This document shows, one piece after another, positions 13,932 through 50,477 of a stretch of 57,786 bases of DNA. The stretch is taken from NCBI GenBank assembly GCA_964538105.1, contig CAZIFP010000001.1, positions 1 through 57,786 of the forward strand, read 5' to 3'. The DNA is from an uncultured Bifidobacteriaceae bacterium. GTDB taxonomy: Bacteria; Verrucomicrobiota; Verrucomicrobiia; Limisphaerales; UBA11358. The translations under genes were made by a program, and so were the position numbers. How positions within the stretch are numbered: the stretch's first letter is position 1; the number at the start of each line of letters is the position of its first letter. The notes below the pieces were generated by a model that was given only the letters and a program-made list of their open reading frames with translations, was not told the origin of the DNA and made no database searches.

Positions 13932-13933
13932 AA

Positions 13934-14707: not shown

Positions 14708-14710
14708 AAT

Positions 14711-14789: not shown

Positions 14790-14797
14790 AAACAACC

Positions 14798-16979: not shown

Positions 16980-17094
16980 GCGTGGCGCAGGATTTAAAAA
17001 TTAAAAATCGGTCGCTGGCCAGCTGGGGATTCCACCGGGTCACACGTTTTTGTTTTCCGACCGGTGAAGGCCCCCGGCAGCAACCGAAAGCAGA

Positions 17095-18895: not shown

Positions 18896-18961
18896 TCGCA
18901 ATCTTGTAAAACGGTTCAAATTAGGCGTAAGCTCACGGCTAGGAAAAAATCCGGCAAACCG

Positions 18962-32761: not shown

Positions 32762-33460
32762 TTAGCCTGAAACGCGCAGCCAGCTTAGATGCACCACGGC
32801 GACGACCACTCCAAGTCCGGCACCGGCAAGAACGTCAAGCACGACATGCTGGCGGATGGCAACCGTGGAATAAAGAATGCCGAGACACCACAGCCAGTTG
32901 AACGCGCATACAAATTTCCCGGCACCCATCTGTCGCAACAGACGATTGAGCCAGATGGCAGTGAACACGGCAAAAGCCACATGTAGGGAGGGACAGACGT
33001 TGCCCGAGGCATCAACCGACTGCAGAAATGCAAACGCCGGATGCTGCGACCAGTCGGTGTCGGACCATGACACAGTCGTCGGCCAGAGGAGAAATATTCC
33101 CAGACCGATAATACTGAGTCCGACGGTGGCCAGTGCGTAGGACACGATTTCGCGGCGCTCAATCAGCAGCGCGGGCGCCAGCGACACATAAAACCACAAT
33201 GACAAATAGAGCGGCAGGGCTTCGGGTTGGAAGGTGATCAGCCGGTCAACGGCGGTGTGCGGCATCGTGGTGACTGGGAAAAACGGATGTTTGAGCACCC
33301 AGAAATAGGCGATAAAAAACAAGGTCATGACGAGGGTCATGCCAATCATTTTGGCCGGCCACCACTTAAGCGCGCGGAGACGGGCTTGATGAAGCCAGCC
33401 AATGCTGGGCGGATGCTTGTGAGGCAAGTCCATGATCAAGGGCGTAACAAGCGATGTCAC
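32762..33460 (-). CDS. PAP2 superfamily membrane protein (PAP2_C / head-group transferase-like H-H-D motif)
   Basis: Polytopic membrane protein with NVCPSLHVAF and IRQHVVLDVLAG (H...HxxxD). This resembles the sphingomyelin/IPC synthase-type PAP2 motif more than the KxxxxxxRP-PSGH-SRxxxxxHxxxD phosphatase motif. It lies 78 nt downstream of the ACP gene on the same strand. Confidence 0.72.
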   Translation of the reverse strand: MTSLVTPLIMDLPHKHPPSIGWLHQARLRALKWWPAKMIGMTLVMTLFFIAYFWVLKHPFFPVTTMPHTAVDRLITFQPEALPLYLSLWFYVSLAPALLIERREIVSYALATVGLSIIGLGIFLLWPTTVSWSDTDWSQHPAFAFLQSVDASGNVCPSLHVAFAVFTAIWLNRLLRQMGAGKFVCAFNWLWCLGILYSTVAIRQHVVLDVLAGAGLGVVVAVVHLSWLRVSG

Positions 33461-33538: not shown

Positions 33539-33814
33539 TTATTTAGGGGGGGGGGAATTGTGCTCTTGAATTGCTGCCGCAATGGTGTTGATGGTTTGCA
33601 TGACTTTGCGCGCGACTTCGACATCTGAAAGTTTCAGCCCGAAATTTTTCTCCAGGGCGACCACCAGTTGCAGCGCATCAATCGAATCCAACCCCAGACC
33701 GTGCGGGCCGAACAAAGGCTGGTCATCCCCAATTTCTGTCGCACTGATTTTGAGCATGCAGTTTTCAACCACCATTTTTTTGATCCGGGCCTTGAGTTCA
33801 GTTGAGTCATTCAT
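33539..33814 (-). CDS. acyl carrier protein (cluster-dedicated)
   Basis: A 91-aa protein from MNDSTELKARIKK (ATG 33814..33812) with the phosphopantetheine attachment motif LGLDSIDALQLV. The track ORF is longer (to 34111), but the extra part overlaps the upstream gene. Confidence 0.88.
   Translation of the reverse strand: MNDSTELKARIKKMVVENCMLKISATEIGDDQPLFGPHGLGLDSIDALQLVVALEKNFGLKLSDVEVARKVMQTINTIAAAIQEHNSPPPK
33546..33555. repeat. G10 (C10 on the coding strand) homopolymer at the extreme 3' end of the ACP gene
   Basis: Read directly: atttaggggggggggaattg. It encodes the terminal ...NSPPPK* of the ACP. Confidence 0.9.
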
Positions 33815-33861: not shown

Positions 33862-34908
33862 TTAACCCGTTTTCGCGCAAGCCCGAAAACGCGCGCCAAT
33901 CGCCTGCTGATTCGCGCCCACCACGCTGGCATTCACGGCGGAAAAATGGCCGCTCGCAATCGCGTTGCCGGCGGCGACGCACTGCCAGGCGGCCGAGGCC
34001 GTGAACCCCTCGCCGAGAATTGATTTCGGCACTAGCCGCCGGCCTGACCAGTCGCGCCATGCCATATTTTCCGCTGCTGCCGCAAGCGGGTTTGGTTGCG
34101 CGCTCACGCACAGCAATTCATCCGGCCCGCAGGGCGGCAATTGCGCCCGCATTTTTCGCGCGGCTTCCGACCGGTTCTGGAGTTGCGTGAATAAAAAGGA
34201 ATCTGTGATGCCCACCAGTTCCGCGCCGACCGCCGGCGGCTTTTCCTTCCGTAAGTAAATCGCGCCGGACCCGGCGCTGTGAATCGCGTCATGTTGAAAC
34301 AGTCGTATCGCCTCGGTGACAACCCAGTCCATCTCTTCAGCGCCAACAACGACCACACCATCCGCCCGGTCATCCAGCAGCCAGTCGGCGGCCACCGCCA
34401 GCCCTTGGAAAAAAGTTCCGTCGTCGCCAACCAGCGTGTAGCCGGTTCCGCTCGAATTGAGATACGCCGCGAGATGGCTGGCCGGGGCATTGAAAACGGT
34501 TTCGGGGAAAAACTGCGGGCTGGCCAGGGCCGGTTCGCGCAAAACCTCCTCATAAAACCGCCGTGAATAAGCGACGCTGCCGGCCATGGTGCAGACGATG
34601 ATGCCGAGCCGCAAATCGCCACCTTGGATTCGCACAACGTCGCCGCCCAATGCTTCGAGGGCGGCGGCCACGGTGTGCAGGCTGATGTCGCTCGCGCGCC
34701 GCAAACGAGGATGCGCAAAAAATGCCGGGCGAATTTCCGGCGGTGGCACGTTGCGGATGCACAAGGGCTTTTCCCAGCCCGGCCGCACCACGCTCTCCGT
34801 GGGAATGAGATGGCACTTGGTCAAGGCGGTCTGCAAGGCTGCAACACCCCAGCCCGCCGGAGAAACCGCGCCGAGGCCGTGAACGAAAATTTTTCTCGGC
34901 GCGTTCAT
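33862..34908 (-). CDS. beta-ketoacyl synthase-like protein lacking catalytic Cys/His (chain-length-factor-like partner)
   Basis: A KS-type N-terminus (IFVHGLGAVSPAGWG) is present. By eye alignment to the adjacent KS, the active-site ACASG position reads LVGDDGTF, and the C-terminal GHLLGAAG position reads GEGFTASAA. It is 348 aa, shorter than a KS. Confidence 0.72.
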   Translation of the reverse strand: MNAPRKIFVHGLGAVSPAGWGVAALQTALTKCHLIPTESVVRPGWEKPLCIRNVPPPEIRPAFFAHPRLRRASDISLHTVAAALEALGGDVVRIQGGDLRLGIIVCTMAGSVAYSRRFYEEVLREPALASPQFFPETVFNAPASHLAAYLNSSGTGYTLVGDDGTFFQGLAVAADWLLDDRADGVVVVGAEEMDWVVTEAIRLFQHDAIHSAGSGAIYLRKEKPPAVGAELVGITDSFLFTQLQNRSEAARKMRAQLPPCGPDELLCVSAQPNPLAAAAENMAWRDWSGRRLVPKSILGEGFTASAAWQCVAAGNAIASGHFSAVNASVVGANQQAIGARFRACAKTG

Positions 34909-34980: not shown

Positions 34981-36222
34981 TTATTTCCACCTCCGAAAAA
35001 TGAGCGTGGCGTTCGCGCCGCCAAAGCCAAACGAGTTGGAGAGGGCGGATTCAATCTTCGCATCCATTGGTTCGCCCAAGATTTTAAAATGGCAGACGGG
35101 ATCGGGCGTGGTGATTGAAGCTTGCGGCGGCAGCCATTGACCGCGCAAGGCCATGAGACAAATGACGGCTTCCGCCGCGCCGGCCGCGCCGAGCAGATGC
35201 CCGCTGACGGATTTTGTGGAACTGACCCGCAAATGTTTCGCGCCGTCACCCGCCCAGCGATTGATGGCGGCGGCTTCGCTCGCATCATTGTGCGGGGTGG
35301 CCGTGCCGTGCGCGTTGAGGTAGTCAATTTGCCCCGGCAAAATTTTTGCGCTGGCGCAGGCAGCGGTCATCGCGGCCAAGGCCGCCTTGCCTTCGGGATG
35401 CGGTTGCGTGAGGTGATGCGTGTCGGTCGCCGTGCCGTAGCCGATGATTTCGCCCAGAATTTCCGCACCGCGTTCTCGTGCATGGCCGAGCGTTTCCAAA
35501 GTCAGGATGGCCGCGCCTTCACCCAGCGTGAGTCCGTCGCGCTGTGCGTCAAACGGACGACAGGGGGTGGTGGAAAGTGCCTGGAGCGAATCGAATCCGG
35601 CAAACGTCAACTGGCACAAGGTGTCGTAACCGCCGGTCAAAACTTTTTCCGCGCGTCCCTGCCGCAACATTTCCCAAGCATGGCCGATGGCATTTGCACC
35701 GGAGGCGCAGGCGTTGGAAATGGAGGTGAGCGGGCCTTGAAAGCCAAACGCGCTGCACAAGTTGAGCCCCTGCTGCTGCACCTGATAGTGCATGACACGC
35801 GTCGCCTGCTGCTTTTTCTGGAGTGGCATCTCGATGGCCTGCTGCAGAAATTTTTCGCCCAAAACCATTTCGCCGCTGGTTGTGCCGAGAACCACGGGCA
35901 AATCTTCCGCCGATTCCCAACCTGCCTGCGTCCACGCTTCGTGGGCGGCGTGCAACAGCATCCAGGTGGCGCGATCCAGCCGGCGCAAGGTGTTCGCGGA
36001 AAGTTTGGTTTGCGGAAGTTCGGAAGGTAAATCAATCTCCGCCGCGATTTTGGCACGTTGCCGTGAAACATCAAACAGCGTCACGGGACGAATGGCGGGG
36101 CGCCCGGCACGAAACCCTTCGGCATTGAGACGACAGCCGACGCCGAGCGCAGTGACAATGCCCGCGCCGGTCACGACGACGCGATGGGGCCGGACGGGAG
36201 ATTTTGGGTGAGGAAACAGCAA
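34981..36222 (-). CDS. beta-ketoacyl-ACP synthase (FabF/KAS II-like)
   Basis: The catalytic triad contexts are ISNACASGANAIGHA, YLNAHGTATPHND and STKSVSGHLLGAAG. The track ORF extends to 36342 and would overlap the radical SAM gene. A TTG at 36222, 7 nt after that gene's stop, gives a standard ~413 aa. The exact start is uncertain. Confidence 0.88.
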   Translation of the reverse strand: MLFPHPKSPVRPHRVVVTGAGIVTALGVGCRLNAEGFRAGRPAIRPVTLFDVSRQRAKIAAEIDLPSELPQTKLSANTLRRLDRATWMLLHAAHEAWTQAGWESAEDLPVVLGTTSGEMVLGEKFLQQAIEMPLQKKQQATRVMHYQVQQQGLNLCSAFGFQGPLTSISNACASGANAIGHAWEMLRQGRAEKVLTGGYDTLCQLTFAGFDSLQALSTTPCRPFDAQRDGLTLGEGAAILTLETLGHARERGAEILGEIIGYGTATDTHHLTQPHPEGKAALAAMTAACASAKILPGQIDYLNAHGTATPHNDASEAAAINRWAGDGAKHLRVSSTKSVSGHLLGAAGAAEAVICLMALRGQWLPPQASITTPDPVCHFKILGEPMDAKIESALSNSFGFGGANATLIFRRWK

Positions 36223-36229
36223 GCGCGCC

Positions 36230-37354
36230 TCAAGTTTGAATTGCGGTTTCGGAAATGGTTTCGGTCGTGACCTTACCGGCGTTCTTGTCCCGGTAAAATT
36301 CCGCGAGTCCTGATTTCGACGGCGCGAGTCCTTCGGCGGCAATCGCCGCCAGCACCCGTTCCTCGGTCATGATGAAACGGTCGCGTTTGTAGATGACGTA
36401 ATCCCCGCGCACATCGGTCGGCGTCAAATTGATCGTCACGAGGTTCGCGCCGGCGCACAGGCCGCGCCGGTAGCCATCCTGGGCGGCAAGGTTGAACGCA
36501 CTGACGGCGGGAATCACCCAGTCCGGACGCATCATCCGCAGGGCGCTGACACAATTAAAAGTCCAGTCGGAGTTTGCCGTCGGATTCCCGGCCAGCGGCG
36601 TGTCCTCGCCCGGAATGAACGGGCTGACGCTGCATCCGCTCAACGGCAGCGAACGGGCCAGCTCCAGATTTTTAAGCAAATCGCGCGGCGTCTGGCCCGG
36701 CAGCCCGGCGATGAAGCCGGAACTGACGTTCCATTTATTTTCCGCGAGGAGACGGACATGCCGCAACCGTTCCGCCAAAGTGCCGGGCGCTTCGAACTGC
36801 TCGTATTGCGCGGCATTACCGGTCTCAAACTTCATGATGAAAATGCTCGCGCCGGCGGCTCGCAGTTCGGCATAAAGTTCTGGCGACAGTGTTCCCAGAC
36901 AGACGCTGATGCCGAGCGATGTTTTCCGCCTCAAGGTCTCGATGAGCGGCAGCACGACTTCACGCACCGCCACCGGGTCTTCACCCGTCTGAATGTTCAC
37001 GTCCGTCACGCTCGCGGGACGATGCTCAATCAGGAGTTCGGCGATTTGCTCGGCCCGCGCGCGGTAGCGGGCGAGGCTGCGATTATCACGGCGCATTCCG
37101 CAGTAGGCGCAGTTTTCGCGGCAGAAATTTGAAACCTCGACGACGGCGCGCACAAACACTTTTTTGCCGAACACCTTCCGGGTCACGGCGGCGGCGCGTT
37201 CATGGAACATCACTTGCGCCGCGCCGGTCAAAGCGAGTTCCGACTCCGTGGGAAAATATCCATGACTTGCCACTCGCAAATAATAATAGGCGGAGGGTTC
37301 CGACGCAACCAGTGGGGAAAACACCCCATGGCCATGAACCGAAAGCCGGCTCAA
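36230..37354 (-). CDS. radical SAM enzyme, BioB/HydE/ThiH-like subfamily
   Basis: The CX3CX2C cluster is CRENCAYC within VVEVSNFCRENCAYCGMRRDN. The segment SSGFIAGLPGQTPRDLL resembles the HydE/BioB-type GxIxGxPGQT segment. TIM-barrel length is 374 aa. Confidence 0.85.
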   Translation of the reverse strand: MSRLSVHGHGVFSPLVASEPSAYYYLRVASHGYFPTESELALTGAAQVMFHERAAAVTRKVFGKKVFVRAVVEVSNFCRENCAYCGMRRDNRSLARYRARAEQIAELLIEHRPASVTDVNIQTGEDPVAVREVVLPLIETLRRKTSLGISVCLGTLSPELYAELRAAGASIFIMKFETGNAAQYEQFEAPGTLAERLRHVRLLAENKWNVSSGFIAGLPGQTPRDLLKNLELARSLPLSGCSVSPFIPGEDTPLAGNPTANSDWTFNCVSALRMMRPDWVIPAVSAFNLAAQDGYRRGLCAGANLVTINLTPTDVRGDYVIYKRDRFIMTEERVLAAIAAEGLAPSKSGLAEFYRDKNAGKVTTETISETAIQT

Positions 37355-37377: not shown

Positions 37378-38133
37378 TTATTTACGCGCCTGCAAAACGA
37401 TGCGCGCGCCGTGATAACGCCACACGTTTGCCCCGGGGATTTCCGCCCGTGCCGCCAGTGCGCGCCATTCGTTCAGGCGAAAACCACGCTGCACCGAAAT
37501 CAGACCATCTTCAATAATGGTCCGGTCTGCGCGCATTAGGTGCAGCGCCAGCCAGACCAGAGCGTAAAGCCCGGCGTTGCGGTGCAGGTCGCAGATGAAA
37601 ATGGCGTCGCGGGTCACCCGCCATGCCTCACGCCAGTGCGTGACGACCTGTTCGTCCGTCAGATGATGCGTCATTTGTGAGGCGACGACAAGATCAAAGC
37701 TGCCATCGGCGAACGGCAATTGCAGCGCCGAACCCACGACGCCGTCCGGCAGGCCGCCAATTTTTAGCGCCACCGGGTTCGTGTCCAGATTGGTGAAATG
37801 CCAGTGCCAACCGCGCTGCTGTGCCCATTCTGCCAATGTTTTTCCAAGCAACCCTGTGCCCGCGCCCACGTCGAGAATCTCCAGCCGTTCACAATTTATT
37901 TTGCCAAGCCACTGCGGCAACACGGCTTCAAATGGATGCGAGAAGCGAAAGAGAACATTGACGCGGTTGAGATCGCGGAACGAAGCGGCAATCTCCGCCT
38001 CGGTGCGTTCAGGGAGGTCAAAATATTCCGTCTGCGTTGAACGATGGCTCAAAAACATAATTCTCATCAAGAGAAACACGGATGCAACTTCAGTTCCAGT
38101 CACAAACGTCGTTGCAAACCCAGGCCGCCACAT
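37378..38133 (-). CDS. class I SAM-dependent methyltransferase
   Basis: Motif I is LEILDVGAGTGLLG, with an acidic loop and motif post-I present. The start may be the internal MRIMFL/MFLSH (38067/38058). Confidence 0.8.
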   Translation of the reverse strand: MWRPGFATTFVTGTEVASVFLLMRIMFLSHRSTQTEYFDLPERTEAEIAASFRDLNRVNVLFRFSHPFEAVLPQWLGKINCERLEILDVGAGTGLLGKTLAEWAQQRGWHWHFTNLDTNPVALKIGGLPDGVVGSALQLPFADGSFDLVVASQMTHHLTDEQVVTHWREAWRVTRDAIFICDLHRNAGLYALVWLALHLMRADRTIIEDGLISVQRGFRLNEWRALAARAEIPGANVWRYHGARIVLQARK

Positions 38134-38151: not shown

Positions 38152-39000
38152 TCAGAGAAAATCTTTTCCATCGGGCAAGGTGAAAACGTAGCCGTCCGCC
38201 GTCAGCCGGGTCAAAACGGTTTCGGCCAGGATCAAATTGATCGGACGCCTCTGCCGGTCGCGCCGGCCTTCGTGCAACAAAATGATCGCGCCGGGTTGGA
38301 TGGATTTGCAGATCCGGCCGGCCATGGCTTCGGTGTTGTGAAGCAATCCGTCAAATCCGCGCGCCGACCAGCCGATGAGCTTCAGGTTCCGGTCGCACAA
38401 TAAAAAGTGCAGAAATAGGTTGGCCATGCCCGCCGGTGCGCGAAACCACCGTGGTGGTTCACCGGTGGCATCGAGGAGGGTTTTGGTGCAGTCATCAATC
38501 TCCCGCGTCAGCCGGGTTTGGAGATAACACCAGAAAAATAGAACCGGATGGTTCCGGGTGTGATTGGCCAGCGTGTGACCCTCACGCAAGATCGCCCGTG
38601 CCAGTTCGGGATATTTTTGAACCTGCCGGCCGATGACAAAAAAGGTTGCCCGCGCGTTGTGCATTTTCAGCAGCTTGAGCAATGCCGGCGTGTCTTCGGG
38701 ATGCGGCCCGTCATCAAAGGTCAGCCAGACGGCCTTTTTTTGCGTGCGAAAGCGGGTAACGACCGGGCCAAACCAGCGGCAGTTGGCGCGAATGGCCGGA
38801 TAAACAATCAGAAATTTGGTGGCCAGTTCCAGGGTGATAAAAATCAGTTTGTGATTCCAATTGAGGGCAATGAGCACGGGCGTGGTCGCTCCAACGGCGA
38901 GAATCAGAATCAGCGCCAACCGGCGGCGTGTAAAAAACCAGCGGCCCAACCTGGTCAGACTGGCATCGGGCGCGACGCTGATGTTTTTGTCCTGTGACAT
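38152..39000 (-). CDS. polysaccharide deacetylase (NodB homology domain, CE4) with N-terminal membrane anchor
   Basis: CE4 motif 1 is LTFDDGPHPEDTP. Motif 2 is NHTRNH, within GHTLANHTRNHP. Two N-terminal hydrophobic helices are present. Confidence 0.85.
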   Translation of the reverse strand: MSQDKNISVAPDASLTRLGRWFFTRRRLALILILAVGATTPVLIALNWNHKLIFITLELATKFLIVYPAIRANCRWFGPVVTRFRTQKKAVWLTFDDGPHPEDTPALLKLLKMHNARATFFVIGRQVQKYPELARAILREGHTLANHTRNHPVLFFWCYLQTRLTREIDDCTKTLLDATGEPPRWFRAPAGMANLFLHFLLCDRNLKLIGWSARGFDGLLHNTEAMAGRICKSIQPGAIILLHEGRRDRQRRPINLILAETVLTRLTADGYVFTLPDGKDFL

Positions 39001-39009: not shown

Positions 39010-39780
39010 TCAGAGAATTTTCCGCCCGTGTTTGGCACGCTGCCGCAATTTCCAAATCCGTTTCATCTGCGGCAACATCTCCAGCACCAAAAGCGTGTGC
39101 CGCCGGATGAGCAGCAAATTGTCCCGCAGATAATGGAAGTGGGAGGTTCCGCCCTCGGCCGGTTTGAAATAGTGGACCGGCGCGGGTAGGTTGACCGGCG
39201 GGACGCCGGCCCAAAAAAGCCGCACGGCAAGTTCGGTGTCGAAATCAAAACGCCGCGCGCTGCGGATGCCTTGCAGGATGCGCACCGATTCCTGAATGGG
39301 ATAAACCCGAAAACCAAACAATGAATCTTCGATTCCGCCCCAAAAGGTTTCCAGATTAGCCCACCAGTTTCCCACGCGCCGGCCGTGCCGACGCGATGCC
39401 GGCGCGTCGGCGGCAAATTGCGGCACGCCCAAAATCATGGCGGCGGGATTTTTCTGCGAGGCCGACATGAACTGGGGAATATCGGCCACCGAATGCTGCC
39501 CATCCGCGTCCAGCACCAGCGCATGGGTGAAACCCTCCCGGCTGGCTGCGAGCATTGCGTGTAACACCGCCGCGCCCTTTCCAGAATTTCGTTCCAGGGT
39601 TAAAACCCGCAGCCCGGCTCCGTCAATTTCGGCCACAGCCGCCGCACTGCCGTCGGTGCTGCCGTCCATCACGACCCAAACCGGCTGCCAGCAAGCCAAT
39701 GCCTGTCTCACCGTTTCGGCGAGTTTGCCTCCCGCATTGTAACTGGGGATGACAACCAAATGCGTCGGACTCGTCGTCAT
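39010..39780 (-). CDS. family 2 glycosyltransferase
   Basis: VVIPSYNAGGKL, MDGSTDGS and a DxD-like LVLDADGQH are typical of the GT2 GT-A fold. It overlaps the upstream acyltransferase by 4 nt. Confidence 0.85.
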   Translation of the reverse strand: MTTSPTHLVVIPSYNAGGKLAETVRQALACWQPVWVVMDGSTDGSAAAVAEIDGAGLRVLTLERNSGKGAAVLHAMLAASREGFTHALVLDADGQHSVADIPQFMSASQKNPAAMILGVPQFAADAPASRRHGRRVGNWWANLETFWGGIEDSLFGFRVYPIQESVRILQGIRSARRFDFDTELAVRLFWAGVPPVNLPAPVHYFKPAEGGTSHFHYLRDNLLLIRRHTLLVLEMLPQMKRIWKLRQRAKHGRKIL

Positions 39781-40589
39781 TTGTTTTGAATCGCTGTTAA
39801 ACTGTTCTCCTCGGATGGTAAAAGTCTTTCCCGAAAATAATTTTCCACCCGGCCGCCGAATGTTTTCGCGTCCTCGCCCGGTGCCGGCTGAAATCGCTGG
39901 CCCAGCCGCAGCGAATAATGCAGCGGAAACGCCGGTCGCTTAAAAAGCGGCCTGCCTTTGCCCAGAAAGTTGGTGTCTGTAGTAATGAAAACGGTTTGCA
40001 CGGGTGACCGGGTCAAAACCGCGACCAATGCGAAACCCATTTTGAAGGGCAGCAATCTTCCGCCTAAAGTTCGCGTGCCTTCTGGAAACACCAGCAAGCT
40101 GGCCCCTTCCTGCAGCCGCTCCTCACATTTTTTGACCAGGCCCAAGCCCGATTTATTGTGGACATACCCGGCCAGCCGCGCCGTTCCCGACAAAACAATG
40201 TTGCGCGCCAAACTTCCCTTCATCAGGCAGACAGTCTGCGGCATTTGCGAAACCATCAGCACCACGTCCAGCAGGCAGGGATGATTTGCCGCCACGATCA
40301 ATCCGCCAAATTCGCGCAGACCCGACAACTCGCTCGTGTCCAGTTCCACCAATCCAAACGCGCGCATATAGCCCACAAAAAACCGGAACAGCTTGTGGAT
40401 CAGTTTTTGTCCGAACCCGCGTGCACGCGCTCCACGAAATAAAACCGCAGGAACCATGCAAATCACGCTGACCAGCGAACCGACCACCGCAAACATCAAA
40501 TACGCCCCATAAAAGGCTGCGGTTTGCAAAACGCCTTTGAACCAGTTTTTCGTGTGTGTCGTCATCCGCCAAAAAATCATGTTTTGCAA
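39777..40589 (-). CDS. lysophospholipid/1-acyl-glycerol-3-phosphate acyltransferase family protein (PlsC-like)
   Basis: The HX4D motif is ANHPCLLD and the FPEGTRT motif is present, with an N-terminal TM helix. It is the first gene of the minus-strand operon 40589->33539. Confidence 0.85.
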   Translation of the reverse strand: MQNMIFWRMTTHTKNWFKGVLQTAAFYGAYLMFAVVGSLVSVICMVPAVLFRGARARGFGQKLIHKLFRFFVGYMRAFGLVELDTSELSGLREFGGLIVAANHPCLLDVVLMVSQMPQTVCLMKGSLARNIVLSGTARLAGYVHNKSGLGLVKKCEERLQEGASLLVFPEGTRTLGGRLLPFKMGFALVAVLTRSPVQTVFITTDTNFLGKGRPLFKRPAFPLHYSLRLGQRFQPAPGEDAKTFGGRVENYFRERLLPSEENSLTAIQNK

Positions 40590-40719: not shown

Positions 40720-41088
40720 ATGCCGCCGACATCAGATCCAGCACCGATTCCCGCCGCGCGCCGGAAGTTGTGGCTCCAAAAAATCACCTGGTTTTTAATC
40801 GCCTCGATGCTGCTGGGCTGGTTTTACGGCTGGGCTTCGCCCCGGGCTTTTCCGAAAGACGCATCGTTCGGTTTTGGCTATGGCATGATGCACGGGGCGC
40901 TCATGCCGATGGCGTTGCCGAGCTTGATTCTCGGACAGAACGTCGAAATTTTTGCGCCGGAAAATACCGGGTGCAACTATAAAATCGGCTTCATTCTTGG
41001 CATCAATGCCTGCGGCTTGGTTTTTTTTGGACCGCTGGTCTGGCGCCCGCGAGTTGATTCGAAGAATCAAAAAAACCAAGAGCGGTAA
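40720..41088 (+). CDS. small hypothetical membrane protein
   Basis: A 122-aa ORF from MPPTSDP with three hydrophobic segments and host-like codon pattern. I recognise no homology. It overlaps the convergent gene end by 22 nt. Confidence 0.4.
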   Translation: MPPTSDPAPIPAARRKLWLQKITWFLIASMLLGWFYGWASPRAFPKDASFGFGYGMMHGALMPMALPSLILGQNVEIFAPENTGCNYKIGFILGINACGLVFFGPLVWRPRVDSKNQKNQER

Positions 41089-41813
41089 ATGTGGCTGACG
41101 TTCAGCTCGCCGCCGGGCCAGCACGAATTTGGCAAAAGAAAAAAAGTCCGCGACGCCCGGTCGAATGTGAGCCGCTCCGGTTCTTCGGCATTGTTCGGGT
41201 CGTAGGATTCAAATTCCCAGCCACCTCCGGTTTCCGTCGCGCCGAACAAAACGATGCAATGATTGATGGTCAGCGCCGGAAATTTCACCAGATGAACGAT
41301 GGGCAGGCGATTTTTTTTAAGCGCGGCGGCCAATGCCGCAGCGGTGCGCGTCTGGTGCGCGCGGGAAAACGGGAAAATCATACGCCAGTGGCTTCGCAAA
41401 AAATACGAGCGCCACGCGCCGCCGCATTCAATCTTCAAAAGATTTTCCTGCGCCCGGCTGAATTCCCGCAGACTTGCAAAGCCGGGAATGATAATCTGTT
41501 CGTCGGGTTTGCTGGCAATTCGTGGGTGGCGGGCAATGACGGCGCGAACGAGTTGCTGATAGATTTCATCGGTCGCAACCGGCCGGTCCGCCGCAAACCG
41601 CGCGTGGTAAAAAAACTGCCGCGCCACGCGCGCGAGGGCGAAGCAACGATGGGCGTATTCCGGTTTCGGGTCGCACGAACTCAAAGTCCGTTTGCCCGTC
41701 GCCGCGTCCATCTGGTATTCCCACACCAATTCGTTCGCAAAGGCGAAGCTGTCGCGCGCGAATTCGAAACGTCGCCCGTTGGTTTCGCTTAAATTTGTTT
41801 TCGCCAAAATCAT
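41067..41813 (-). CDS. hypothetical protein (conserved Cys and His candidates; possible papain-fold acyl hydrolase/transferase)
   Basis: A 248-aa protein from MILAKTNLSE (ATG 41813..41811). The longer track ORF would overlap the divergent adenylating enzyme gene. It contains PEYAHRCFALARV and LTINHCIVLFG...ESYDPNN. No family was recognised with confidence. Confidence 0.5.
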   Translation of the reverse strand: MILAKTNLSETNGRRFEFARDSFAFANELVWEYQMDAATGKRTLSSCDPKPEYAHRCFALARVARQFFYHARFAADRPVATDEIYQQLVRAVIARHPRIASKPDEQIIIPGFASLREFSRAQENLLKIECGGAWRSYFLRSHWRMIFPFSRAHQTRTAAALAAALKKNRLPIVHLVKFPALTINHCIVLFGATETGGGWEFESYDPNNAEEPERLTFDRASRTFFLLPNSCWPGGELNVSHIYRSWFF

Positions 41814-41858: not shown

Positions 41859-43118
41859 ATGCTTTACGAACGGTGGCGGCAAATTTCGGCAGAACGGCGC
41901 AATGAACCTGCGCTGCGCGATGTCGCTTCCGCCAAACGCTGGACATTCGGCGAACTGTTTTCTGCCGGCGAAAAACAAATAACTGGCCCGGCCGGCGTGG
42001 CCTTTCCGCAAGGCCATTCGCCGGAATTTATCTTCGGTTTGCTCGCCGCATGGCGCGAAAACAAAATCGTCTGCCCGCTCGAAGCTGGACAATCTCCGCC
42101 CGAAATTTCCTCACCGCCGGCAAATTGTGTTCACCTCAAATCCACGTCAGCCACCGGCGGCTCGGCTCGGTTCGTCGCCTTCACTGCGGAACAGCTCATG
42201 GCCGACGAGAAGAACATTGTCGCCACCATGTGGCTGCGACCGGACTGGCCGAACCTCGGAGTCATTTCGCTGGCGCATTCCTACGGGTTTTCCAATCTGG
42301 TTCTGCCGCTGCTGTTGCACGGCATACCGCTGATTCTTGCACCGGCGCCGCTGCCGGAGGTCATCCGCCGCGCCGCGGAAGCCGAAAGGTTCATCACGCT
42401 CCCCGCCGTGCCGGCGATGTGGCGTGCGTGGCACATGGCGGGAGCGATTCCGCAAAACGTGCGGCTGGCGATTTCCGCCGGGGCACCGTTGCCGGTGAAT
42501 CTGGAGCAGGAAGTTTTCAATGTGCACGGAATCAAGATTCACAATTTTCTCGGCTCCTCCGAATGCGGCGGCATTGCTTACGACACCAGCGAAACGCCGC
42601 GCACCGAAGCGGCGTTCGTTGGACTGCCGATGCAAAATGTAAATCTGTCGCTCAACGATGATGGTTGTCTGGTGGTTCACAGCCGTGCGGTGGCGGAAAC
42701 TTACTGGCCGGAAACATCCGGTTCACTCGGCGACGGCATTTTTCAGACGAGCGATCTGGCGGAATTGAAAGACGGCGCGGTTTTTCTGCGCGGTCGTCTG
42801 GGCGATCAAATCAACGTGGCCGGACGCAAGGTGTCTCCGGAAACCATCGAGCGCGCGCTGCTCGCGCATCCACAGGTGCGCGAGTGCTTGGTTTTTGGCG
42901 TGCCCAGCCGCGATGCGGAGCGAAAGGAAATCATCGTCGCCGTCGTCGCATCGGATGCGAAGGAATCCGAATTGAAACATTTCCTGTTGCAAACCTTGCC
43001 CGCGTGGCAGGTGCCGCGCGAATGGCGGTTTGTTGAATCGCTTTCGTCAAACATTCGCGGGAAAATCTCCCGCGCCGAATGGCGGAAACGATTTACACAT
43101 TGTAGCGGCAGTCTATGA
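41859..43118 (+). CDS. AMP-dependent synthetase/ligase (short adenylate-forming enzyme, acyl/aryl-ACP ligase-like)
   Basis: Adenylation core motifs are present: LKSTSATGGSARF (a variant of the TSGTTGxPK loop), GSSECGG, FQTSDLAE, LRGRLGDQINVAGRKVSPETIE, and a C-terminal RGKISR. At 419 aa it is shorter than the >500 aa I recall as typical for fatty acyl-CoA ligases. Confidence 0.8.
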   Translation: MLYERWRQISAERRNEPALRDVASAKRWTFGELFSAGEKQITGPAGVAFPQGHSPEFIFGLLAAWRENKIVCPLEAGQSPPEISSPPANCVHLKSTSATGGSARFVAFTAEQLMADEKNIVATMWLRPDWPNLGVISLAHSYGFSNLVLPLLLHGIPLILAPAPLPEVIRRAAEAERFITLPAVPAMWRAWHMAGAIPQNVRLAISAGAPLPVNLEQEVFNVHGIKIHNFLGSSECGGIAYDTSETPRTEAAFVGLPMQNVNLSLNDDGCLVVHSRAVAETYWPETSGSLGDGIFQTSDLAELKDGAVFLRGRLGDQINVAGRKVSPETIERALLAHPQVRECLVFGVPSRDAERKEIIVAVVASDAKESELKHFLLQTLPAWQVPREWRFVESLSSNIRGKISRAEWRKRFTHCSGSL

Positions 43119-45227: not shown

Positions 45228-45995
45228 GTGGGTTGGATGAATGAACAACGCGATTTGACGGCGACACCGCTCTCGCCGCACCGGCCGCTCCCGGAGTTTT
45301 ATGCGGCCCCGGAGGCGCGCCAGAACTTTGTCAATGAACTGTTCGACGAGGCCGCGCCGGATTATGACTGGGTGAGCAGCATGATGTCGTTCGGGCGGGA
45401 CCGGATCTATCGCCGGGAAGCCTTGAAGCGGGCCGGGTTGACGGGCGGGATGCGGCTGCTGGACGTGGCGAGCGGCACGGGCCTGATGATCAAGGCCGCG
45501 CTCGAACTCGGCGTGAACCCCGCGAAGGTGACCGGCGTGGATCCCAGCCGGGGCATGCTGGCGGAAAACCGGAAGCGCAATCCGGTGACGTTGCTGGAAG
45601 GCAAGGGGGAAGCCCTGCCCTGCGCGGATGCGGCGTTCGACTTTGTGTGCATGGGTTACGCGCTGCGGCACGTGGAGGATCTGGGCAGGTTGTTTGGTGA
45701 ATTCAAGCGCGTTTTGCGGCCGGGTGGAAAGGTGTTGATCCTGGAAATCACGCGGCCCACGAATCCGGTGGCGCTGCCCTTGATCCGTTTCTACATGCAA
45801 CAACTGGTGCCGCGCATCGGCTGGTTGCGTCGGCGGAACAAATCCACGGTGAAGCTGATGCAGTATTACTGGGCCACGATCCAGGAATGTGTGCCGCCGA
45901 ATGTGATCGTCACCGCGCTGGCGGACAGCGGTTTCAAGAACGTCAAACGCACCGTCAGCAACGGGATTTTGAGCGAGTATGTCGCCCAGCGGTGA
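45228..45995 (+). CDS. class I SAM-dependent methyltransferase, UbiE/MenG-like
   Basis: FDEAAPDYDWVSSMMSFGRDRIYRRE plus motif I LLDVASGTGL, and RVLRPGGKVLILE, match the UbiE/COQ5 family pattern. The start may be 45237. Confidence 0.8.
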   Translation: MGWMNEQRDLTATPLSPHRPLPEFYAAPEARQNFVNELFDEAAPDYDWVSSMMSFGRDRIYRREALKRAGLTGGMRLLDVASGTGLMIKAALELGVNPAKVTGVDPSRGMLAENRKRNPVTLLEGKGEALPCADAAFDFVCMGYALRHVEDLGRLFGEFKRVLRPGGKVLILEITRPTNPVALPLIRFYMQQLVPRIGWLRRRNKSTVKLMQYYWATIQECVPPNVIVTALADSGFKNVKRTVSNGILSEYVAQR

Positions 45996-46051: not shown

Positions 46052-46486
46052 TTAGTTTCCGCTGAGCGTCAATTCCGCCGTCAGCACAATAATCTCCGCG
46101 CCGACGCGGGCGGTGGCCTGTGCCTGAACCAAAGTGCCGAGCCGGCCGGTTATTTTTGCCTCAAGGTGGATGGTTTCACCGGGTTTCGCCGTGCCGTGAA
46201 TTTTCACGGATCGCAGCGCGGTCAGTTTCAAATTACGAAGCGGCGGAATTTTCGGGTCGCTTTGCGCCACGACGCCCGCGAGCTGCGCCGCAGCCTCGAC
46301 GAGCAGCACACCGGGAAAAATCGGTTCATTCGGAAAATGGCCGCGCAAAAACGCCTCGTCCCCGCGGACGGTGTATTCGCCTGCGCCGCTTTCACCGGGG
46401 TTCAAACTCGTCAGCCGGTCAACGAACCGGAATTCCGCGCCATGCGGCAGAAATTGTAGCGCACGTTGCAAATCGTCTGGATTCAT
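46052..46486 (-). CDS. 3-hydroxyacyl-ACP dehydratase (FabZ/FabA-like hotdog fold)
   Basis: FRFVDRL...LRGHFPNEPIFPGVLLVEAAAQLAG contains the catalytic His and downstream Glu context of FabZ. The start is at MNPDDL, overlapping the upstream stop (ATGA 46483-46486). Confidence 0.85.
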   Translation of the reverse strand: MNPDDLQRALQFLPHGAEFRFVDRLTSLNPGESGAGEYTVRGDEAFLRGHFPNEPIFPGVLLVEAAAQLAGVVAQSDPKIPPLRNLKLTALRSVKIHGTAKPGETIHLEAKITGRLGTLVQAQATARVGAEIIVLTAELTLSGN

Positions 46487-47184
46487 CTGGCAAACGGATC
46501 GGTGACTTTGTAATTGGCGGGCGGAGTCCACTCGAATAATTTTTCGTCCAGCACCGGATTCAAGACCGCGTTGCTGAAATCATTCCGCATCCGCGAGCCG
46601 TCCACAAAAACCAGTTCGGTGCTGGCCAGCGAGAAATCATTCGTCGCCAGACCGATGCGCAGTTCCGGCATCATCCGCTGCGCGAAAGTGCTTTTCGGCT
46701 GGAGCGACATTTGCCATGTGGTATTCGTTTCCATGAGCGACAAAATCTGAAACTGCGCGTCAAATTCCTTCCGGTCGCGCGGAAAACCGGCCTGCAACAG
46801 CGACATCGTATCGCGCCATTCGGTGGGCGTGCCGGCCCCAAGCGGATAGCGCTCGGCGCGTTTCAAACGCGGATAAATCACGAACATCTCGTCGCCATGC
46901 CGGAGCGCGATGGTCTGTGCCGGCTGGCCGAGTTCCCAGCGAAAGTCGTTCGGCATGGCGAAGGCGATGTGGCCTTTGGCGGTGAGCGGCTGGGTCAGAG
47001 TTTTCAACGCGCGGGTCTGGACAAAATCAGCGGACCAGGTGTGGAGGTTTTTTTGCGCGGCGAACCAGGCGTCGAGAACGGTGTTGGTGTCGGCCGCACC
47101 GGCAATGAAAAATGAAAAATGAAAAATGAAAAATGCCGCTGCCAGTTGTGTCGATTTTTTAATTTTGAATTTTGAATTTTTCAT
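46483..47184 (-). CDS. LolA-like outer-membrane lipoprotein carrier family protein
   Basis: The signal peptide is MKNSKFKIKKSTQLAAAFFIFHFSFFIAGAAD. The mature part (WFAAQKNLHTWSADFVQTRALKTLTQPLTAKGHIAFAMPNDFRWELGQP...) follows the LolA/LolA-like pattern seen in aryl-polyene clusters. The start overlaps the upstream stop (ATGA 47181-47184). Confidence 0.72.
   Translation of the reverse strand: MKNSKFKIKKSTQLAAAFFIFHFSFFIAGAADTNTVLDAWFAAQKNLHTWSADFVQTRALKTLTQPLTAKGHIAFAMPNDFRWELGQPAQTIALRHGDEMFVIYPRLKRAERYPLGAGTPTEWRDTMSLLQAGFPRDRKEFDAQFQILSLMETNTTWQMSLQPKSTFAQRMMPELRIGLATNDFSLASTELVFVDGSRMRNDFSNAVLNPVLDEKLFEWTPPANYKVTDPFAR
47105..47181. repeat. two AT-rich heptanucleotide tandem repeats inside the signal-peptide coding region of the LolA-like gene
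   Basis: Read directly: (atgaaaa)x4 + atg at 47105-47135, and (aattttg)x2 + aattttt at 47161-47181. On the coding strand TTTTCAT x4 encodes FFIFHFSFFI. Confidence 0.85.
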
Positions 47185-50100
47185 TTCTGCTGTTGCTCCG
47201 GCCAGACCGGGACGAAGTGAAACCAGTGCGCCAGATGCTGCCGGATGGCCGGCTCGAACGCACGCAGGATTTCCTGGGTCAACTGGATGCGGGCCGCCCG
47301 GTTGCCGATCGTGGCGCGGTCGTAGGGAATCTCCGGCAAAATCCGGGCGAGATGACCGCCGCCCTGGCGCACAATGTAAACCGGAACAATGGCACAACCC
47401 GAGGCGCGGGCGAGTTCGGCGGCGGCGATTGAAGCCGGAAACGGACGGCCAAACAGATCCACGTTCACCGCCGTCGGCGCGGGCGGACGATCCACCAGCA
47501 ATGCCACCGTGGCCCCGGCCTGCAGGCGCTTGATGATTTCAATGAAGGCAAAGGCGTCTTCGCCGACGACCAGGGTTTCAACACCCCGCAATGATCGGGA
47601 ACGCTGGCGCAGTTCAGTCATCTTTTGATCCGGCTCGGGCTGCGTGAGCACGAGCAGTTTGTAACCGTGTTCGACGAGAAACGCGCCTCCGAATTCCCAG
47701 TTCCCAAGATGCGGCGTGACCAGCAGCACACCCCTGCCGCGCGCATGAGCGGCGGCGAAATGTTCCCAGCCGTTCCACTCGCCCAGCCAGCTTTCAAACG
47801 CCACACCGCTTTCGTAACGCCAGAGGTCGGTGATTTTAAGAAAAAATTCCGTGATCAATTCCCGGCCAACACGGGCGGCTTGCGGACGGTCGCCGTTCAA
47901 AGCGGGCAGAAGGTTTTGAATCACGATTTCGCGCCGATGCGCCGCCAGCCGCCAGTAGATCGCGGCCAGCATCCGGGCAAAGAACCCGAAAACCGGCGCA
48001 GGAATGTAGCGTCCGAGCGTCAAACCGGCCCGCCAGATGAACGTGCTGTAGAATTGCGACGGCTCGGAAATTTTTGCGGACGCAGTTTTCAAGTTCTTCT
48101 CGCCAACAATAAATTTCCACCATACCGGCAATAGAAAAACCGAGAGCAGCATGTTGCAACCGATGCCGATGGCGCAGACCCGGCCGAGGCTGGACATGCC
48201 TATGTTGCTCGATAGGCCGAGCGTGCCGAAACCGGCGATCGCCGTCCCGCCGCAAAGCAGCAGCGCGCGTCCGACCGATTGATGGGCCAGTTTCAAATCG
48301 CCGCCATGCCGGCGCAGCGCTAGCTGCATGAAAATGCTGTAATCCACGCCCGTGCCGAGAATCAGCGGTAGCGCCATGAGGTTGAGCAGATTCCACGACC
48401 AGCTGAAAATCTTCATCACTGCCAGCAGGCAGAGGCCGCTCAAAAGCAAAATTCCGACGCTGAAAAAAACTTCCGCGAACCGCCGGAACGCCAGCCAGAG
48501 TGAAAACAGGATCAGTCCGACCATCGGCAGCAGGACTTTCCAGAGATTGTTTTTGACGGCGGCCAGAACAGTTCCGCCGAGCAAATCCCAGCCTGAAAGC
48601 CAGACTCCATCGTGCGGCAGTTGCTCATCCAGCCGGGCAAACGCGGTCGTCGTTGCGTTCGTCGATGGATAAAGGAAACCCACGGCATAAAAGTTTTGCG
48701 GCTCGCGGACAGACAGCTTTTCAAAAATCCAAGTGCAGAGCGGATTCGTCGGCCAGAAAACATTCGTGGTCGCGGCGGCGCGCTGCCAGGTTTCCAAAAT
48801 GCTCCCGGTCAGTCCAAGCGCAGTTTCGGAAAAGCTATTGGTCAAGGCGGCGGCGCGAAACAGATCCAGTTCAGCGGCAAGCTGCCGGGCACTCGCACGA
48901 TTGGCGGCTTGAAACTCCGGTCGCGGCCAGAGCGCACTGGGCAGCGTTAAGCCGGAAAGCGTCTGGTTGGAGACCGCGGTGTTGAGCGCCGGCAGAACCG
49001 CATCCAACTTTCGCGCCACTTCACTTTCATCACGGCCCGAAATCACCAGCCAGAGCGGCTCGCGCTTTTGGTTCAGGTTTTCCTTGATGGAGTCGAGCGT
49101 CGTGTAGGCCTGACTGTCGCGCGGGCGCAGGGCGTTGGCGGTGGGATCCATTTTTGGCAGGCCGGACATCAATATCACGGCGCAGAGCAAAATTATAAGC
49201 GCCGTGACCGTGAAGACAAATTTTGCACGGAGCGGGTTTAGCAAAGACGGAGAATCAACCGCGCTTTTGGATTCTACACGTTTCGCTTGAGCCCGCATTC
49301 GTTGCGGAAACAACGGCGGAAGAAACGCAAAAATCATCACGCAGGCCGAAATGGCGACGCCAATGCCGACAAGCGAGCCGAGTTGGGCGAGACCCGGCAG
49401 TCCGCCAAAGTTCAAAACAAGAAAGGCGGAAATCGTGGTAAACGCCGCCCAGAAAATGCTCGGGGCGATCGCGCGGCGGATTTCCGGGATGGATAGTTCC
49501 GGCTGCGCGAGCGCCTCCTGATAATGCACGACGGCGTAATCCACCGCGAGCCCAAGCAGGATTGCCGCGAAGCCCATGCTGATGACGTTGACCGCGCCGA
49601 AGATCAGGCCGCCGAGCGCGAGCGACGTCGCCAGAATCAGGGCCAGTAGCGTCAGCAGCCAGAGCATCGGCTTGATCCGCCGGTGGGCGCACCAAAATAG
49701 AATCGCGATAATCGAGGCCGTGCCACCGACGGACAATTTCATGTCGTGCTGCATGCTGCCGGAAATTTCCGCCGTGAATGCCGGCCGGCCGGTATAACCA
49801 ATTGTTATCTTTGCATCGGACGGCGACTTGTTGATGACGCTTTTTATGGCATTGAACCATGCCGTGCATTCGCGGTAACCATTCAGTTCACCTCGCGCCT
49901 TGACGAAAATGATCCGGAACGTGCCGTCGGCAGAGGCGAATAATTCCTGTCCCGACCCGAAACCGGAAACCGTTCCGGCGACATTTTCAGGCAGGCGCGT
50001 CAGGCCAAACGGATCGTAGCTTAACTGCGCGATTTCATTGGGCGAAAGCGTGGTGGCCAATTGGTCTCGCGTGGCCGCGAGCACATTCGCGAGATTCGTT

Positions 50101-50477
50101 TCGGAAAGCTGGCCGGCCAGTTGCACAAATTGTTCCGGCGGTTGATTCAGCCAGAGATACGCGATGAGTTCGGCGGTCTGTTCGGGATGCTCCTGCCACG
50201 GCGGCTGCCAGGTGACGGCGGCAACGAGATTGGTCGCTTGCTGCAAGCCTTTGGCGATGGCTTTGGCGGCGTGTTCGGCGGTGTCACGGTCCGGTGCCCG
50301 GACGGTGATGATCAGTTCGCGTGCGTCCGTGAAATGTTGCTGATAAATCTTGAGCCCTTGAACTGCGGGAATGTTTGCGGGTAGCAGGTCGAGCATCTCG
50401 GCATCCAAATGCAGCCGCGCCAGTCCTGCAATGATCGGAACCAGCAGCAGCAACCACCACCAGCGAAACCATTTCAT
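47181..50477 (-). CDS. fusion protein: MMPL/RND-type exporter (N-terminal ~800 aa) + LpxL/HtrB-type lipid A biosynthesis acyltransferase domain (C-terminal ~290 aa)
   Basis: The N-terminal part has two blocks of ~6 TM helices with large loops, typical of MMPL-type 'putative exporter' proteins of aryl-polyene clusters. The C-terminal 290 aa (about 47184-48053) carry HLGNWE (HX4E) and the Lip_A_acyltrans-like pattern. The start is at MKWFRWWWLLLLVP (50477), overlapping the upstream stop. Confidence 0.82.
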   Translation of the reverse strand: MKWFRWWWLLLLVPIIAGLARLHLDAEMLDLLPANIPAVQGLKIYQQHFTDARELIITVRAPDRDTAEHAAKAIAKGLQQATNLVAAVTWQPPWQEHPEQTAELIAYLWLNQPPEQFVQLAGQLSETNLANVLAATRDQLATTLSPNEIAQLSYDPFGLTRLPENVAGTVSGFGSGQELFASADGTFRIIFVKARGELNGYRECTAWFNAIKSVINKSPSDAKITIGYTGRPAFTAEISGSMQHDMKLSVGGTASIIAILFWCAHRRIKPMLWLLTLLALILATSLALGGLIFGAVNVISMGFAAILLGLAVDYAVVHYQEALAQPELSIPEIRRAIAPSIFWAAFTTISAFLVLNFGGLPGLAQLGSLVGIGVAISACVMIFAFLPPLFPQRMRAQAKRVESKSAVDSPSLLNPLRAKFVFTVTALIILLCAVILMSGLPKMDPTANALRPRDSQAYTTLDSIKENLNQKREPLWLVISGRDESEVARKLDAVLPALNTAVSNQTLSGLTLPSALWPRPEFQAANRASARQLAAELDLFRAAALTNSFSETALGLTGSILETWQRAAATTNVFWPTNPLCTWIFEKLSVREPQNFYAVGFLYPSTNATTTAFARLDEQLPHDGVWLSGWDLLGGTVLAAVKNNLWKVLLPMVGLILFSLWLAFRRFAEVFFSVGILLLSGLCLLAVMKIFSWSWNLLNLMALPLILGTGVDYSIFMQLALRRHGGDLKLAHQSVGRALLLCGGTAIAGFGTLGLSSNIGMSSLGRVCAIGIGCNMLLSVFLLPVWWKFIVGEKNLKTASAKISEPSQFYSTFIWRAGLTLGRYIPAPVFGFFARMLAAIYWRLAAHRREIVIQNLLPALNGDRPQAARVGRELITEFFLKITDLWRYESGVAFESWLGEWNGWEHFAAAHARGRGVLLVTPHLGNWEFGGAFLVEHGYKLLVLTQPEPDQKMTELRQRSRSLRGVETLVVGEDAFAFIEIIKRLQAGATVALLVDRPPAPTAVNVDLFGRPFPASIAAAELARASGCAIVPVYIVRQGGGHLARILPEIPYDRATIGNRAARIQLTQEILRAFEPAIRQHLAHWFHFVPVWPEQQQK

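Follow-up and report, generated by a model that had tools for sequence, protein, structure and literature searches.

A HydE-like radical SAM enzyme of a distinct subfamily in an aryl polyene-type gene cluster of Limisphaerales

The HydE-like radical SAM gene and its product

The open reading frame (ORF) at 36230-37354, on the reverse strand of a 57,786-nucleotide stretch of DNA from an uncultured bacterium of the verrucomicrobial order Limisphaerales (contig CAZIFP010000001.1, assembly GCA_964538105.1; the whole stretch is hereafter called the window), codes for a HydE-like radical S-adenosylmethionine (SAM) enzyme and lies within a gene cluster with protein-level homology to the aryl polyene (Ape) cluster of Escherichia coli. 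In its longest form the ORF has a TTG start and comprises 374 amino acids. As the first-pass annotation of this DNA had proposed, it contains a cluster motif of the CRENCAYC type, which is the CX3CX2C site of the radical SAM [4Fe-4S] cluster (C78, C82 and C85; 37100-37123, reverse strand, within VVEVSNFCRENCAYCGMRRDN), and a GLPGQT segment, common to HydE (residues 217-222; 36689-36706, reverse strand). The CX3CX2C motif is invariant in 124 of 124 aligned relatives and in the 76-sequence alignment used for the structure model, and together with a Pfam Radical_SAM match (PF04055; E = 2e-17, 64.2 bits against a gathering score of 29.5) it places the protein in the radical SAM superfamily. PF04055 is the sole Pfam domain, and no B12-binding domain was found in the Pfam scan. 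The NCBIfam HydE model (TIGR03956) matches with E = 4e-55 and the Thermotoga maritima HydE of the PDB (TmHydE) with E = 3e-45; there are more than 2,800 homologs, the top one 98 % identical, and many family members carry the automatic JGI name 'biotin synthase'. With matches so far beyond chance the ORF is a real gene.

A gap of 7 nt (ggcgcgc) separates the stop codon, TGA at 36232-36230, from the TTG at 36222 which opens the reading frame of a beta-ketoacyl-ACP synthase (KS; ACP, acyl carrier protein), just as had been noted earlier, and a comparably tight spacing, within about 10 nt, was found in 27 related loci. The true start codon is probably an internal in-frame GTG, either at 37324 (residue 11) or at 37273 (residue 28), because the predicted local distance difference test score (pLDDT) is below 50 for residues 1-26 of the 374-amino-acid model, the alignments of homologs open at query residues 9-36 and conservation sets in near P35.

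An AlphaFold2 model calculated from the 76-sequence alignment had a mean pLDDT of 91. In Foldseek comparisons it gave template modelling (TM) scores of 0.78-0.87 to T. maritima HydE (root-mean-square deviation 2.0-2.8 Å; PDB 3ciw, 7o1o), 0.75/0.83 to PylB (PDB 3t7v), 0.71-0.83 to BioB, about 0.65 to ThiH and HydG, about 0.6 to NosL and MqnE and 0.37 to HemN (1olt). The protein has 32 % sequence identity with TmHydE and 23 % with the BioB of E. coli. The protein is thus modelled as a complete (beta-alpha)8 barrel radical SAM enzyme of the HydE/PylB/BioB structural class, and its earlier placement in a BioB/HydE/ThiH-like group was right, with HydE as the nearest member by family scores, PDB match and Foldseek.

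The score with the HydE model, 187.6 bits, is nevertheless under the curated cut-off of 254.6. When the model was calibrated with representatives drawn from a 50 %-identity library, HydE proteins with the canonical signature scored 281-379 bits and members of the clade of the window protein 162-188 bits (P0121, 172; P0124, 162). The PylB (TIGR03910) and BioB (TIGR00433) models gave 117.7 bits against a cut-off of 348.2 and 65.2 bits against 225, respectively, and PylB, HmdB, ThiH, HydG, MqnC/E and CofG/H were all rejected with scores far under their own cut-offs. No pylC/pylD-type neighbours (ATP-grasp, PylD-like) were present among the Pfam-scanned ORFs of the window.

In HydE the conserved methionines M224 and M291 bind and shuttle an Fe(CO)2CN species, and a site named S3 is described, without residue numbers, as containing one conserved threonine and two conserved arginines (PMC10114646). 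From conserved alignment columns we equate these three with T134, R155 and R180, an assignment that is our own and provisional. In the window protein M224 is replaced by G240, M291 by T307, T134 by S150, R155 by I171, S136 by cysteine and T268 by valine, while R180 is kept as R196 and Q107, E161 and Y306 are also retained. Among 76 HydE representatives, defined by methionine at both 224 and 291 and including T. maritima HydE, T134 was found in 65, S136 in 68, R155 in 65 and T268 in 67. The changes M224G, M291T, R155I and T268V should widen the lower part of the cavity and strip it of a charge, which would suit an organic rather than an inorganic substrate.

The window protein has no cysteines beyond the barrel able to form the auxiliary cluster of HydE, and the [2Fe-2S] ligands of BioB (C97, C128, C188 and R260) align to V119, S150, S211 and P282. 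Besides the three cluster cysteines, C152 and C241 are invariant in the clade of the window protein; C152 is shared with a group of paralogs described below (group B) and is serine in HydE, and C241 is peculiar to the clade. An internal auxiliary cluster of the BioB kind, formed by these two, was considered and rejected, neither residue aligning with a BioB ligand. Thio-insertion, one of the activities suggested in the first-pass annotation, is unlikely because auxiliary-cluster cysteines of the HydE or BioB type are absent.

The best family and structure matches would suit a true HydE maturase serving an [FeFe]-hydrogenase encoded elsewhere in the genome, and the protein shares with HydE the full barrel, the CX3CX2C motif and the GLPGQT segment. 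It differs in lying in a polyketide-like lipid cluster with no hyd genes nearby: hydA, hydF and hydG were found neither among the Pfam-scanned ORFs of the window nor in the annotated related loci L001-L008. With a score below the cut-off and far below that of true HydE representatives, with M224, M291, T134 and R155 replaced, and with a branch outside the HydE clade in the tree described below, such a role is very improbable. That the protein is a biotin synthase, as the JGI name and the shared fold would have it, is scarcely credible given a BioB score far below the cut-off, the loss of all four [2Fe-2S] ligands and the low identity to the E. coli enzyme. Grouping with true BioB or HydE, the outcome named beforehand as speaking against a cluster-specific enzyme, was thus found neither in scores, residues and ligands nor in the tree. 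The protein is a single-cluster enzyme of a distinct HydE/PylB-related subfamily, neither a hydrogenase maturase nor a biotin synthase.

Relatives of the window protein and the paralogs of group B

In an exhaustive search of 1.84 billion cluster representatives the full-length match scores fell sharply, from 500 bits (P0121, 68 % identity) to 368 bits (P0124, 55 % identity) and then to about 215 bits or less (38-41 % identity). A neighbour-joining tree of 124 representatives, read together with a residue signature (positions 134, 155, 159, 224, 268, 269 and 291 in TmHydE numbering), gave three groups: canonical HydE, with TmHydE and long fused forms; group B, with the signature [I/L]-x-K-[M/F/A]-V-S-T; and the clade of the window protein, with S-I-K-G-V-S-T. 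The window protein branches outside the HydE clade, beside group B, and judged from these alignments it belongs to a narrow, distinct clade of relatives from the Limisphaerales and Pedosphaera. A scan of one genome per GTDB species gave 139 relatives, and the best 80 of these, 62-91 % identical to the window protein, are the loci to which the counts below refer. Nearly all of the 80 are Verrucomicrobiota of the Limisphaerales/Pedosphaera/subdivision 3 lineage. Nine loci (L018, L022, L030, L044, L047, L058, L061, L064 and L089) contain a verrucomicrobial radical SAM locus of 64-87 % identity in metagenome-assembled genomes with foreign labels (Bifidobacteriaceae, Methylomirabilota, Akkermansia muciniphila, Haliangiales and Limnocylindria), which are likely errors of binning or labelling.

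Group B (P0136, P0140, P0143 and others) is a broad set and, at 30-41 % identity, comprises the nearest relatives outside the window clade. Its members share with that clade K159, cysteine at the position of S136, V268, S269 and T291, but most of them, unlike the window clade, keep M224. They have none of the HydE-type residues M291, R155, T134 and T268, and yet several score 255-258 bits with TIGR03956, just over the cut-off of 254.6, and so would receive an automatic HydE call. No characterised member of group B was found. Four of them carry a fused class I methyltransferase domain (P0139, P0162, P0172 and P0173) and two a fused AMP-binding domain (P0175 and P0192); an AMP-binding gene lies immediately downstream of P0136 and of P0140, and P0135 comes after genes for a GNAT-carrier protein and an AMP-binding enzyme. 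Sugar-related genes also occur near the paralogs, with polysaccharide export at P0140, a polysaccharide deacetylase at P0157 and glycosyltransferases at P0192, and likewise an epimerase at P0124. Neither a KS gene nor any other Ape-type cluster gene was present in the group B contexts retrieved.

The surrounding gene cluster and its conservation

The cluster spans 32.7-52.3 kb of the window. Downstream of the radical SAM gene and on the same reverse strand lie the KS gene, which has a TTG start (34981-36222), a gene for a KS-like protein with only a sub-threshold ketoacyl-synt match (33862-34908), read here as the chain-length-factor partner of the KS, and a gene for the ACP (33539-33814). A chain-length-factor-like gene comes directly after the KS gene in 46 of the 80 loci. 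A PAP2-family phosphatase gene (32762-33460, reverse strand) is also present in the related locus L001, but with occurrence in only two of the 80 loci its membership of the cluster is uncertain. The radical SAM, KS, chain-length factor and ACP genes are predicted to be co-transcribed and are probably translationally coupled.

The gene directly upstream, also on the reverse strand, codes for a class I SAM methyltransferase (37378-38133), so that the radical SAM gene does lie between KS and methyltransferase genes, as first described; adjacency to the methyltransferase gene was found in only about 21 of the 80 loci, and the suggested pairing of the two enzymes is therefore not a conserved one. 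Further upstream on this strand are genes for a NodB-type polysaccharide deacetylase (38152-39000; only six of the 80 loci), a family 2 glycosyltransferase (GT2; 39010-39780), a PlsC-type acyltransferase (39777-40589) and a conserved protein whose L001 ortholog has DUF8321/DUF8322 domains (41067-41813, with a probable ATG start at 41813; 32 of 80 loci). The last of these is divergent from the gene for an adenylate-forming (AMP-binding) enzyme on the forward strand (41859-43118; 29 of 80 loci), the presumed loader of the starter acid, from which it is 45 nt apart. The motifs HRCF and INHC, seen by eye in the DUF8321/DUF8322-type protein, could form a Cys-His catalytic pair.

The remainder of the cluster includes genes for a Na+/H+ exchanger, a UbiE/COQ5-type methyltransferase (45228-45995, forward strand; also in L001), a FabA-like dehydratase whose L001 ortholog matches an ApeI-like Pfam family (46052-46531, reverse strand), an ApeL-like LolA-like carrier (46483-47397, reverse strand), an MMPL transporter that shares a single ORF of 1116 amino acids with a lipid-A-type (LpxL-like) acyltransferase domain (47181-50531, reverse strand) and an FAD-dependent halogenase or monooxygenase-like enzyme (50968-52272, reverse strand; 20 of 80 loci). 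The MMPL part of the fusion resembles ApeM and its acyltransferase part the C-terminal domain of ApeJ, in E. coli the domain being fused instead to the GT2 of ApeJ.

Comparison of the window proteins with the Ape proteins of E. coli CFT073 by BLASTP gave matches of the KS to ApeR and ApeO (about 35 %; 35 % and 1e-60 for ApeR), the GT2 to ApeJ (36 %, 2e-48), the acyltransferase to ApeD (37 %, 9e-31), the ACP to ApeE (37 %, 4e-10), the adenylating enzyme to ApeH (25 %, 5e-8) and the LolA-like protein to ApeL (28 %, 9e-5), with a weak match of the MMPL protein to ApeM. On these comparisons, with counterparts for seven proteins, the window cluster is a homolog of the Ape cluster of E. coli. The radical SAM enzyme, deacetylase, PAP2 phosphatase and halogenase have no counterpart in the CFT073 cluster by BLASTP and are additions relative to the Ape clusters of E. 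coli and Xenorhabdus, which in turn have a ketoreductase (KR) and a thioesterase that the window cluster is without. A tblastn search of the window with the KR of L001 gave no match; a KR is present in about 18-21 of the 80 loci and sits between the chain-length factor and the ACP in about a quarter of the related clusters. The E. coli gene list, ApeA-R, and the published pathway likewise contain no radical SAM step (PMC8253772), in agreement with the earlier statement that canonical aryl polyene clusters do without an enzyme of this sort. Literature searches gave nothing specific on HydE-like radical SAM enzymes in aryl polyene clusters or in Verrucomicrobia.

When the 80 loci were searched with the proteins of the window cluster, a KS gene was found within 3.5 kb downstream in 29 of 31 loci with at least 70 % identity and in eight of 20 with 60-70 %, a GT2 gene upstream in 22 of 29 and 16 of 26, and a gene for the adenylating enzyme upstream in 21 of 27 and four of 19, respectively. 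One relative of 74 % identity preserves the entire order from the acyltransferase to the ACP, and one of 68 % identity the order radical SAM, KS, chain-length factor, KR and ACP. Co-occurrence with KS genes, which had been proposed as a check, thus held among close relatives, and a lack of conservation of the neighbourhood, which would have spoken against a role in the cluster, was not observed there. At least one cluster gene is nearby in 70 of the 80 loci and none in 10. Where the cluster is split, the radical SAM gene tends to stay with the block of methyltransferase, halogenase-like and GT2 genes and not with the KS gene. The commonest neighbour is the GT2 gene (55 of 80 loci), in most loci a divergent one with about 32-38 % identity to the GT2 of the window, and in L084 the radical SAM gene is accompanied only by genes for a GT2 and for a small membrane protein. 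Three relatives of 67 % identity (L060, L065 and L066) have full 10-kb flanks of housekeeping genes, IF-2/NusA and TypA-like genes being among those seen, and P0124 (L004/L005:10001-11038) is solitary between genes for prolyl-tRNA synthetase and an epimerase. The radical SAM enzyme is thus a part dedicated to the Limisphaerales/Pedosphaera variant of the Ape-type outer-membrane lipid cluster.

An extra radical SAM gene was seen directly between the HydE-like gene and the KS gene in 12 of the 80 related clusters (L020, L024, L025, L036, L039, L040, L042, L044, L046, L048, L050 and L052). Its product (e.g. L024:11082-12494; about 470 amino acids) is of the B12-binding class, with PF02310 and PF04055, the same enzyme class as the radical SAM enzyme of ladderane clusters, and no such gene is present in the window.

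Outside the cluster, a complete ABC transporter operon of the branched-chain-amino-acid type, with a Peripla_BP_6 binding protein, two permeases and two ATPases, was seen at 10843-15505 of the window; in L006 a similar binding protein and ATPases lie ahead of the radical SAM-methyltransferase fusion P0139, maybe by coincidence. At 15510-22086 a gene for a NapC/NirT-type multihaem cytochrome adjoins ResB-like and CcsA-like cytochrome c assembly genes, which are unrelated to the present finding.

Possible function of the enzyme

In the nosiheptide pathway a barrel radical SAM enzyme, NosL, turns an amino acid into an aryl carboxylic acid, and an AMP-ligase loads a discrete ACP. The same primer logic is followed in polyenes primed with beta-amino acids by a radical aminomutase, an adenylation enzyme and an ACP. 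The reading that we prefer, though only tentatively, is that the enzyme of the window makes or remodels the carboxylic-acid primer (head group) which the adenylating enzyme loads on the ACP. The enzyme would probably supply a radical reaction not found in the clusters of this type known so far. SAM would be reductively cleaved by the enzyme, the 5'-deoxyadenosyl radical would be used on a small carboxylate or amino-acid-like molecule, and the outcome would be a primer acid that is newly made or remodelled. After activation of this acid by the adenylate-forming enzyme, which would also transfer it to the ACP, the ACP-bound primer would be extended by the KS and chain-length factor, and the methyltransferases and the halogenase-like enzyme would decorate the same head group. 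The starter of the E. coli Ape pathway is UbiC-derived 4-hydroxybenzoate, put on the ACP by ApeH (PMC8253772). Menaquinone-using Verrucomicrobia probably do without it, and a dedicated primer route would fill this gap.

The same three gene classes as NosL, NosI and NosJ (radical SAM, AMP-ligase and ACP) occur here, which is an analogy in pathway logic and not of family membership, NosL being of the ThiH-like branch with a TM score of only about 0.6 to the model. PylB, which has the fold and the single cluster in common with the window protein, rearranges the carbon skeleton of a free amino acid and is a plausible model for the making of an unusual primer. The link to a primer acid is favoured further by the fusion of group B paralogs to AMP-binding enzymes or their proximity to these, in the case of P0135 together with a carrier protein, by the fusion of other group B members to SAM methyltransferases, and by the position of the radical SAM gene in split clusters, with the methyltransferase, halogenase and GT2 block and not with the KS gene. 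A clue to a primer from shikimate or chorismate was followed and dropped: L007 has a chorismate synthase gene beside the ACP gene and L001 a class IV aminotransferase gene, and neither recurs in the 80 loci.

Several observations weigh against the primer reading. The absence of UbiC from these genomes is itself an assumption, and the substrate and chemistry of the enzyme are predictions from sequence and gene context. Between the adenylating enzyme of the window and the AMP-binding partners found with paralogs identity is no higher than 24-28 %, and the methyltransferase domains fused to paralogs are not orthologous to the window methyltransferase (E about 0.01); the association therefore extends no further than enzyme class, and a Rosetta-stone link through orthologous fused domains was ruled out. 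In the range of 60-70 % identity the GT2 gene is at least as frequent a neighbour as the KS gene, and this frequency, together with the sugar genes near paralogs, would fit a role on a sugar anchor equally well. About 7-10 relatives of 55-67 % identity are solitary among housekeeping genes.

A substrate on the sugar or aminosugar anchor of the lipid, proposed by analogy, is rather unlikely overall, although the genes between the acyltransferase and the KS in the window (GT2, deacetylase, methyltransferase and radical SAM) would suit, for example, a radical reaction that contracts the ring of a hexosamine or forms a C-C bond on it, the hexosamine being installed by the GT2 and unmasked by the NodB-type deacetylase, comparable to HpnI/HpnK/HpnJ of hopanoid synthesis or to calditol synthase Cds. 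Other radical SAM enzymes are known to modify the head groups of lipids (PMC13459092), the GT2 is the commonest neighbour, also in the 60-70 % band where a KS is often absent, L084 keeps little else, and sugar-related genes lie near P0140, P0157, P0192 and P0124. The deacetylase, however, is rare among the 80 loci, the GT2 is a standard Ape component (ApeJ) whose adjacency may reflect membership of the cluster alone, and in most loci it is the divergent form; HpnJ was not among the 25 best NCBIfam matches of the window protein, which has no B12-binding domain, and the recurring AMP-binding partners would be left unexplained. It is similarly improbable that the enzyme acts jointly with the KS and chain-length factor on the polyene chain, growing or complete, while this is bound to the ACP. 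The reaction could be cyclopropanation or another C-C bond formation as in Jaw5, or the 5'-deoxyadenosyl radical could be added to a double bond, as happens with HpnH and MqnE (with HydE the acceptor is sulfur). The 7-nt gap to the KS gene with its parallels in 27 relatives and the retained order radical SAM, KS, chain-length factor, KR and ACP speak for such an action, as does the fact that HydE, the nearest characterised relative, carries out radical addition and not hydrogen abstraction (PMC10114646); glycine, threonine and isoleucine in place of M224, M291 and R155 should make the cavity larger and more hydrophobic, and the B12-type radical SAM gene at the same spot in 12 of the 80 clusters suggests radical tailoring of the chain there. 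On the other hand, many relatives in the 60-70 % band, like the solitary copies, no longer have the KS nearby, the B12 domain of known chain-modifying radical SAM enzymes (PMC13459092) was not found in the Pfam scan, and the paralogs go with adenylating enzymes and not with KS genes.

The solitary copies, P0124 between the prolyl-tRNA synthetase and epimerase genes and the three loci among genes of translation and other housekeeping functions with no cluster gene within 10 kb, would also suit a housekeeping role apart from the cluster, such as a cofactor step, with a place inside the cluster in only some lineages. Such a role is quite unlikely in view of the coupling to the KS in 29 of 31 close relatives, where the two genes are at most about 10 nt apart, the presence of at least one cluster gene near 70 of the 80 loci and the near confinement of the family, among the best 80 of 139 relatives, to one verrucomicrobial order.

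A 2026 review lists Tes, Mss, Gms, GrsA/B, Gmm, Cds, HpnH/J/P/R, Jaw5 and the ladderane enzyme as lipid-modifying radical SAM enzymes, of which only Jaw5 and the ladderane enzyme have been proposed to act on ketoacyl lipids (PMC13459092). Both differ in class from the window protein, Jaw5 being HemN-like with a second SAM site and the ladderane enzyme having a B12 domain, in contrast to PF04055 only. The analogy to ladderane clusters drawn in the first-pass annotation consequently holds for the presence of a radical SAM gene beside KS and ACP genes but not for the enzyme, that of the ladderane clusters being B12-dependent and of another class (PMC13459092).

What is new here is a conserved subfamily, so far uncharacterised, that occurs in soil and freshwater Verrucomicrobia as part of a variant of a familiar type of cluster. 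As radical SAM enzymes are absent from the Ape clusters studied, its presence would suggest that primer, head group or chain have a different chemistry in these bacteria, which are abundant in soil and fresh water. It would be the third radical SAM enzyme proposed to act on ketoacyl lipids, and of another structural class than Jaw5 and the ladderane enzyme (PMC13459092). The existence of HydE-like paralogs which score at the annotation cut-off without the Fe-handling residues of HydE bears on the inference of hydrogenase maturation from genomes. It is a more doubtful proposition, put forward as a long shot, that the clade of the window protein and group B are the first HydE-family enzymes with purely organic substrates, a large unrecognised family which works with adenylate-forming enzymes and carrier proteins, is in part automatically annotated as HydE or biotin synthase, and here catalyses a reaction new for ketoacyl lipids. 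If this is true, the reaction could resemble that of HydE, with the 5'-deoxyadenosyl radical being added to a polyene or heteroatom, or it could be a skeletal rearrangement of the NosL or PylB type giving rise to a new polyketide primer.

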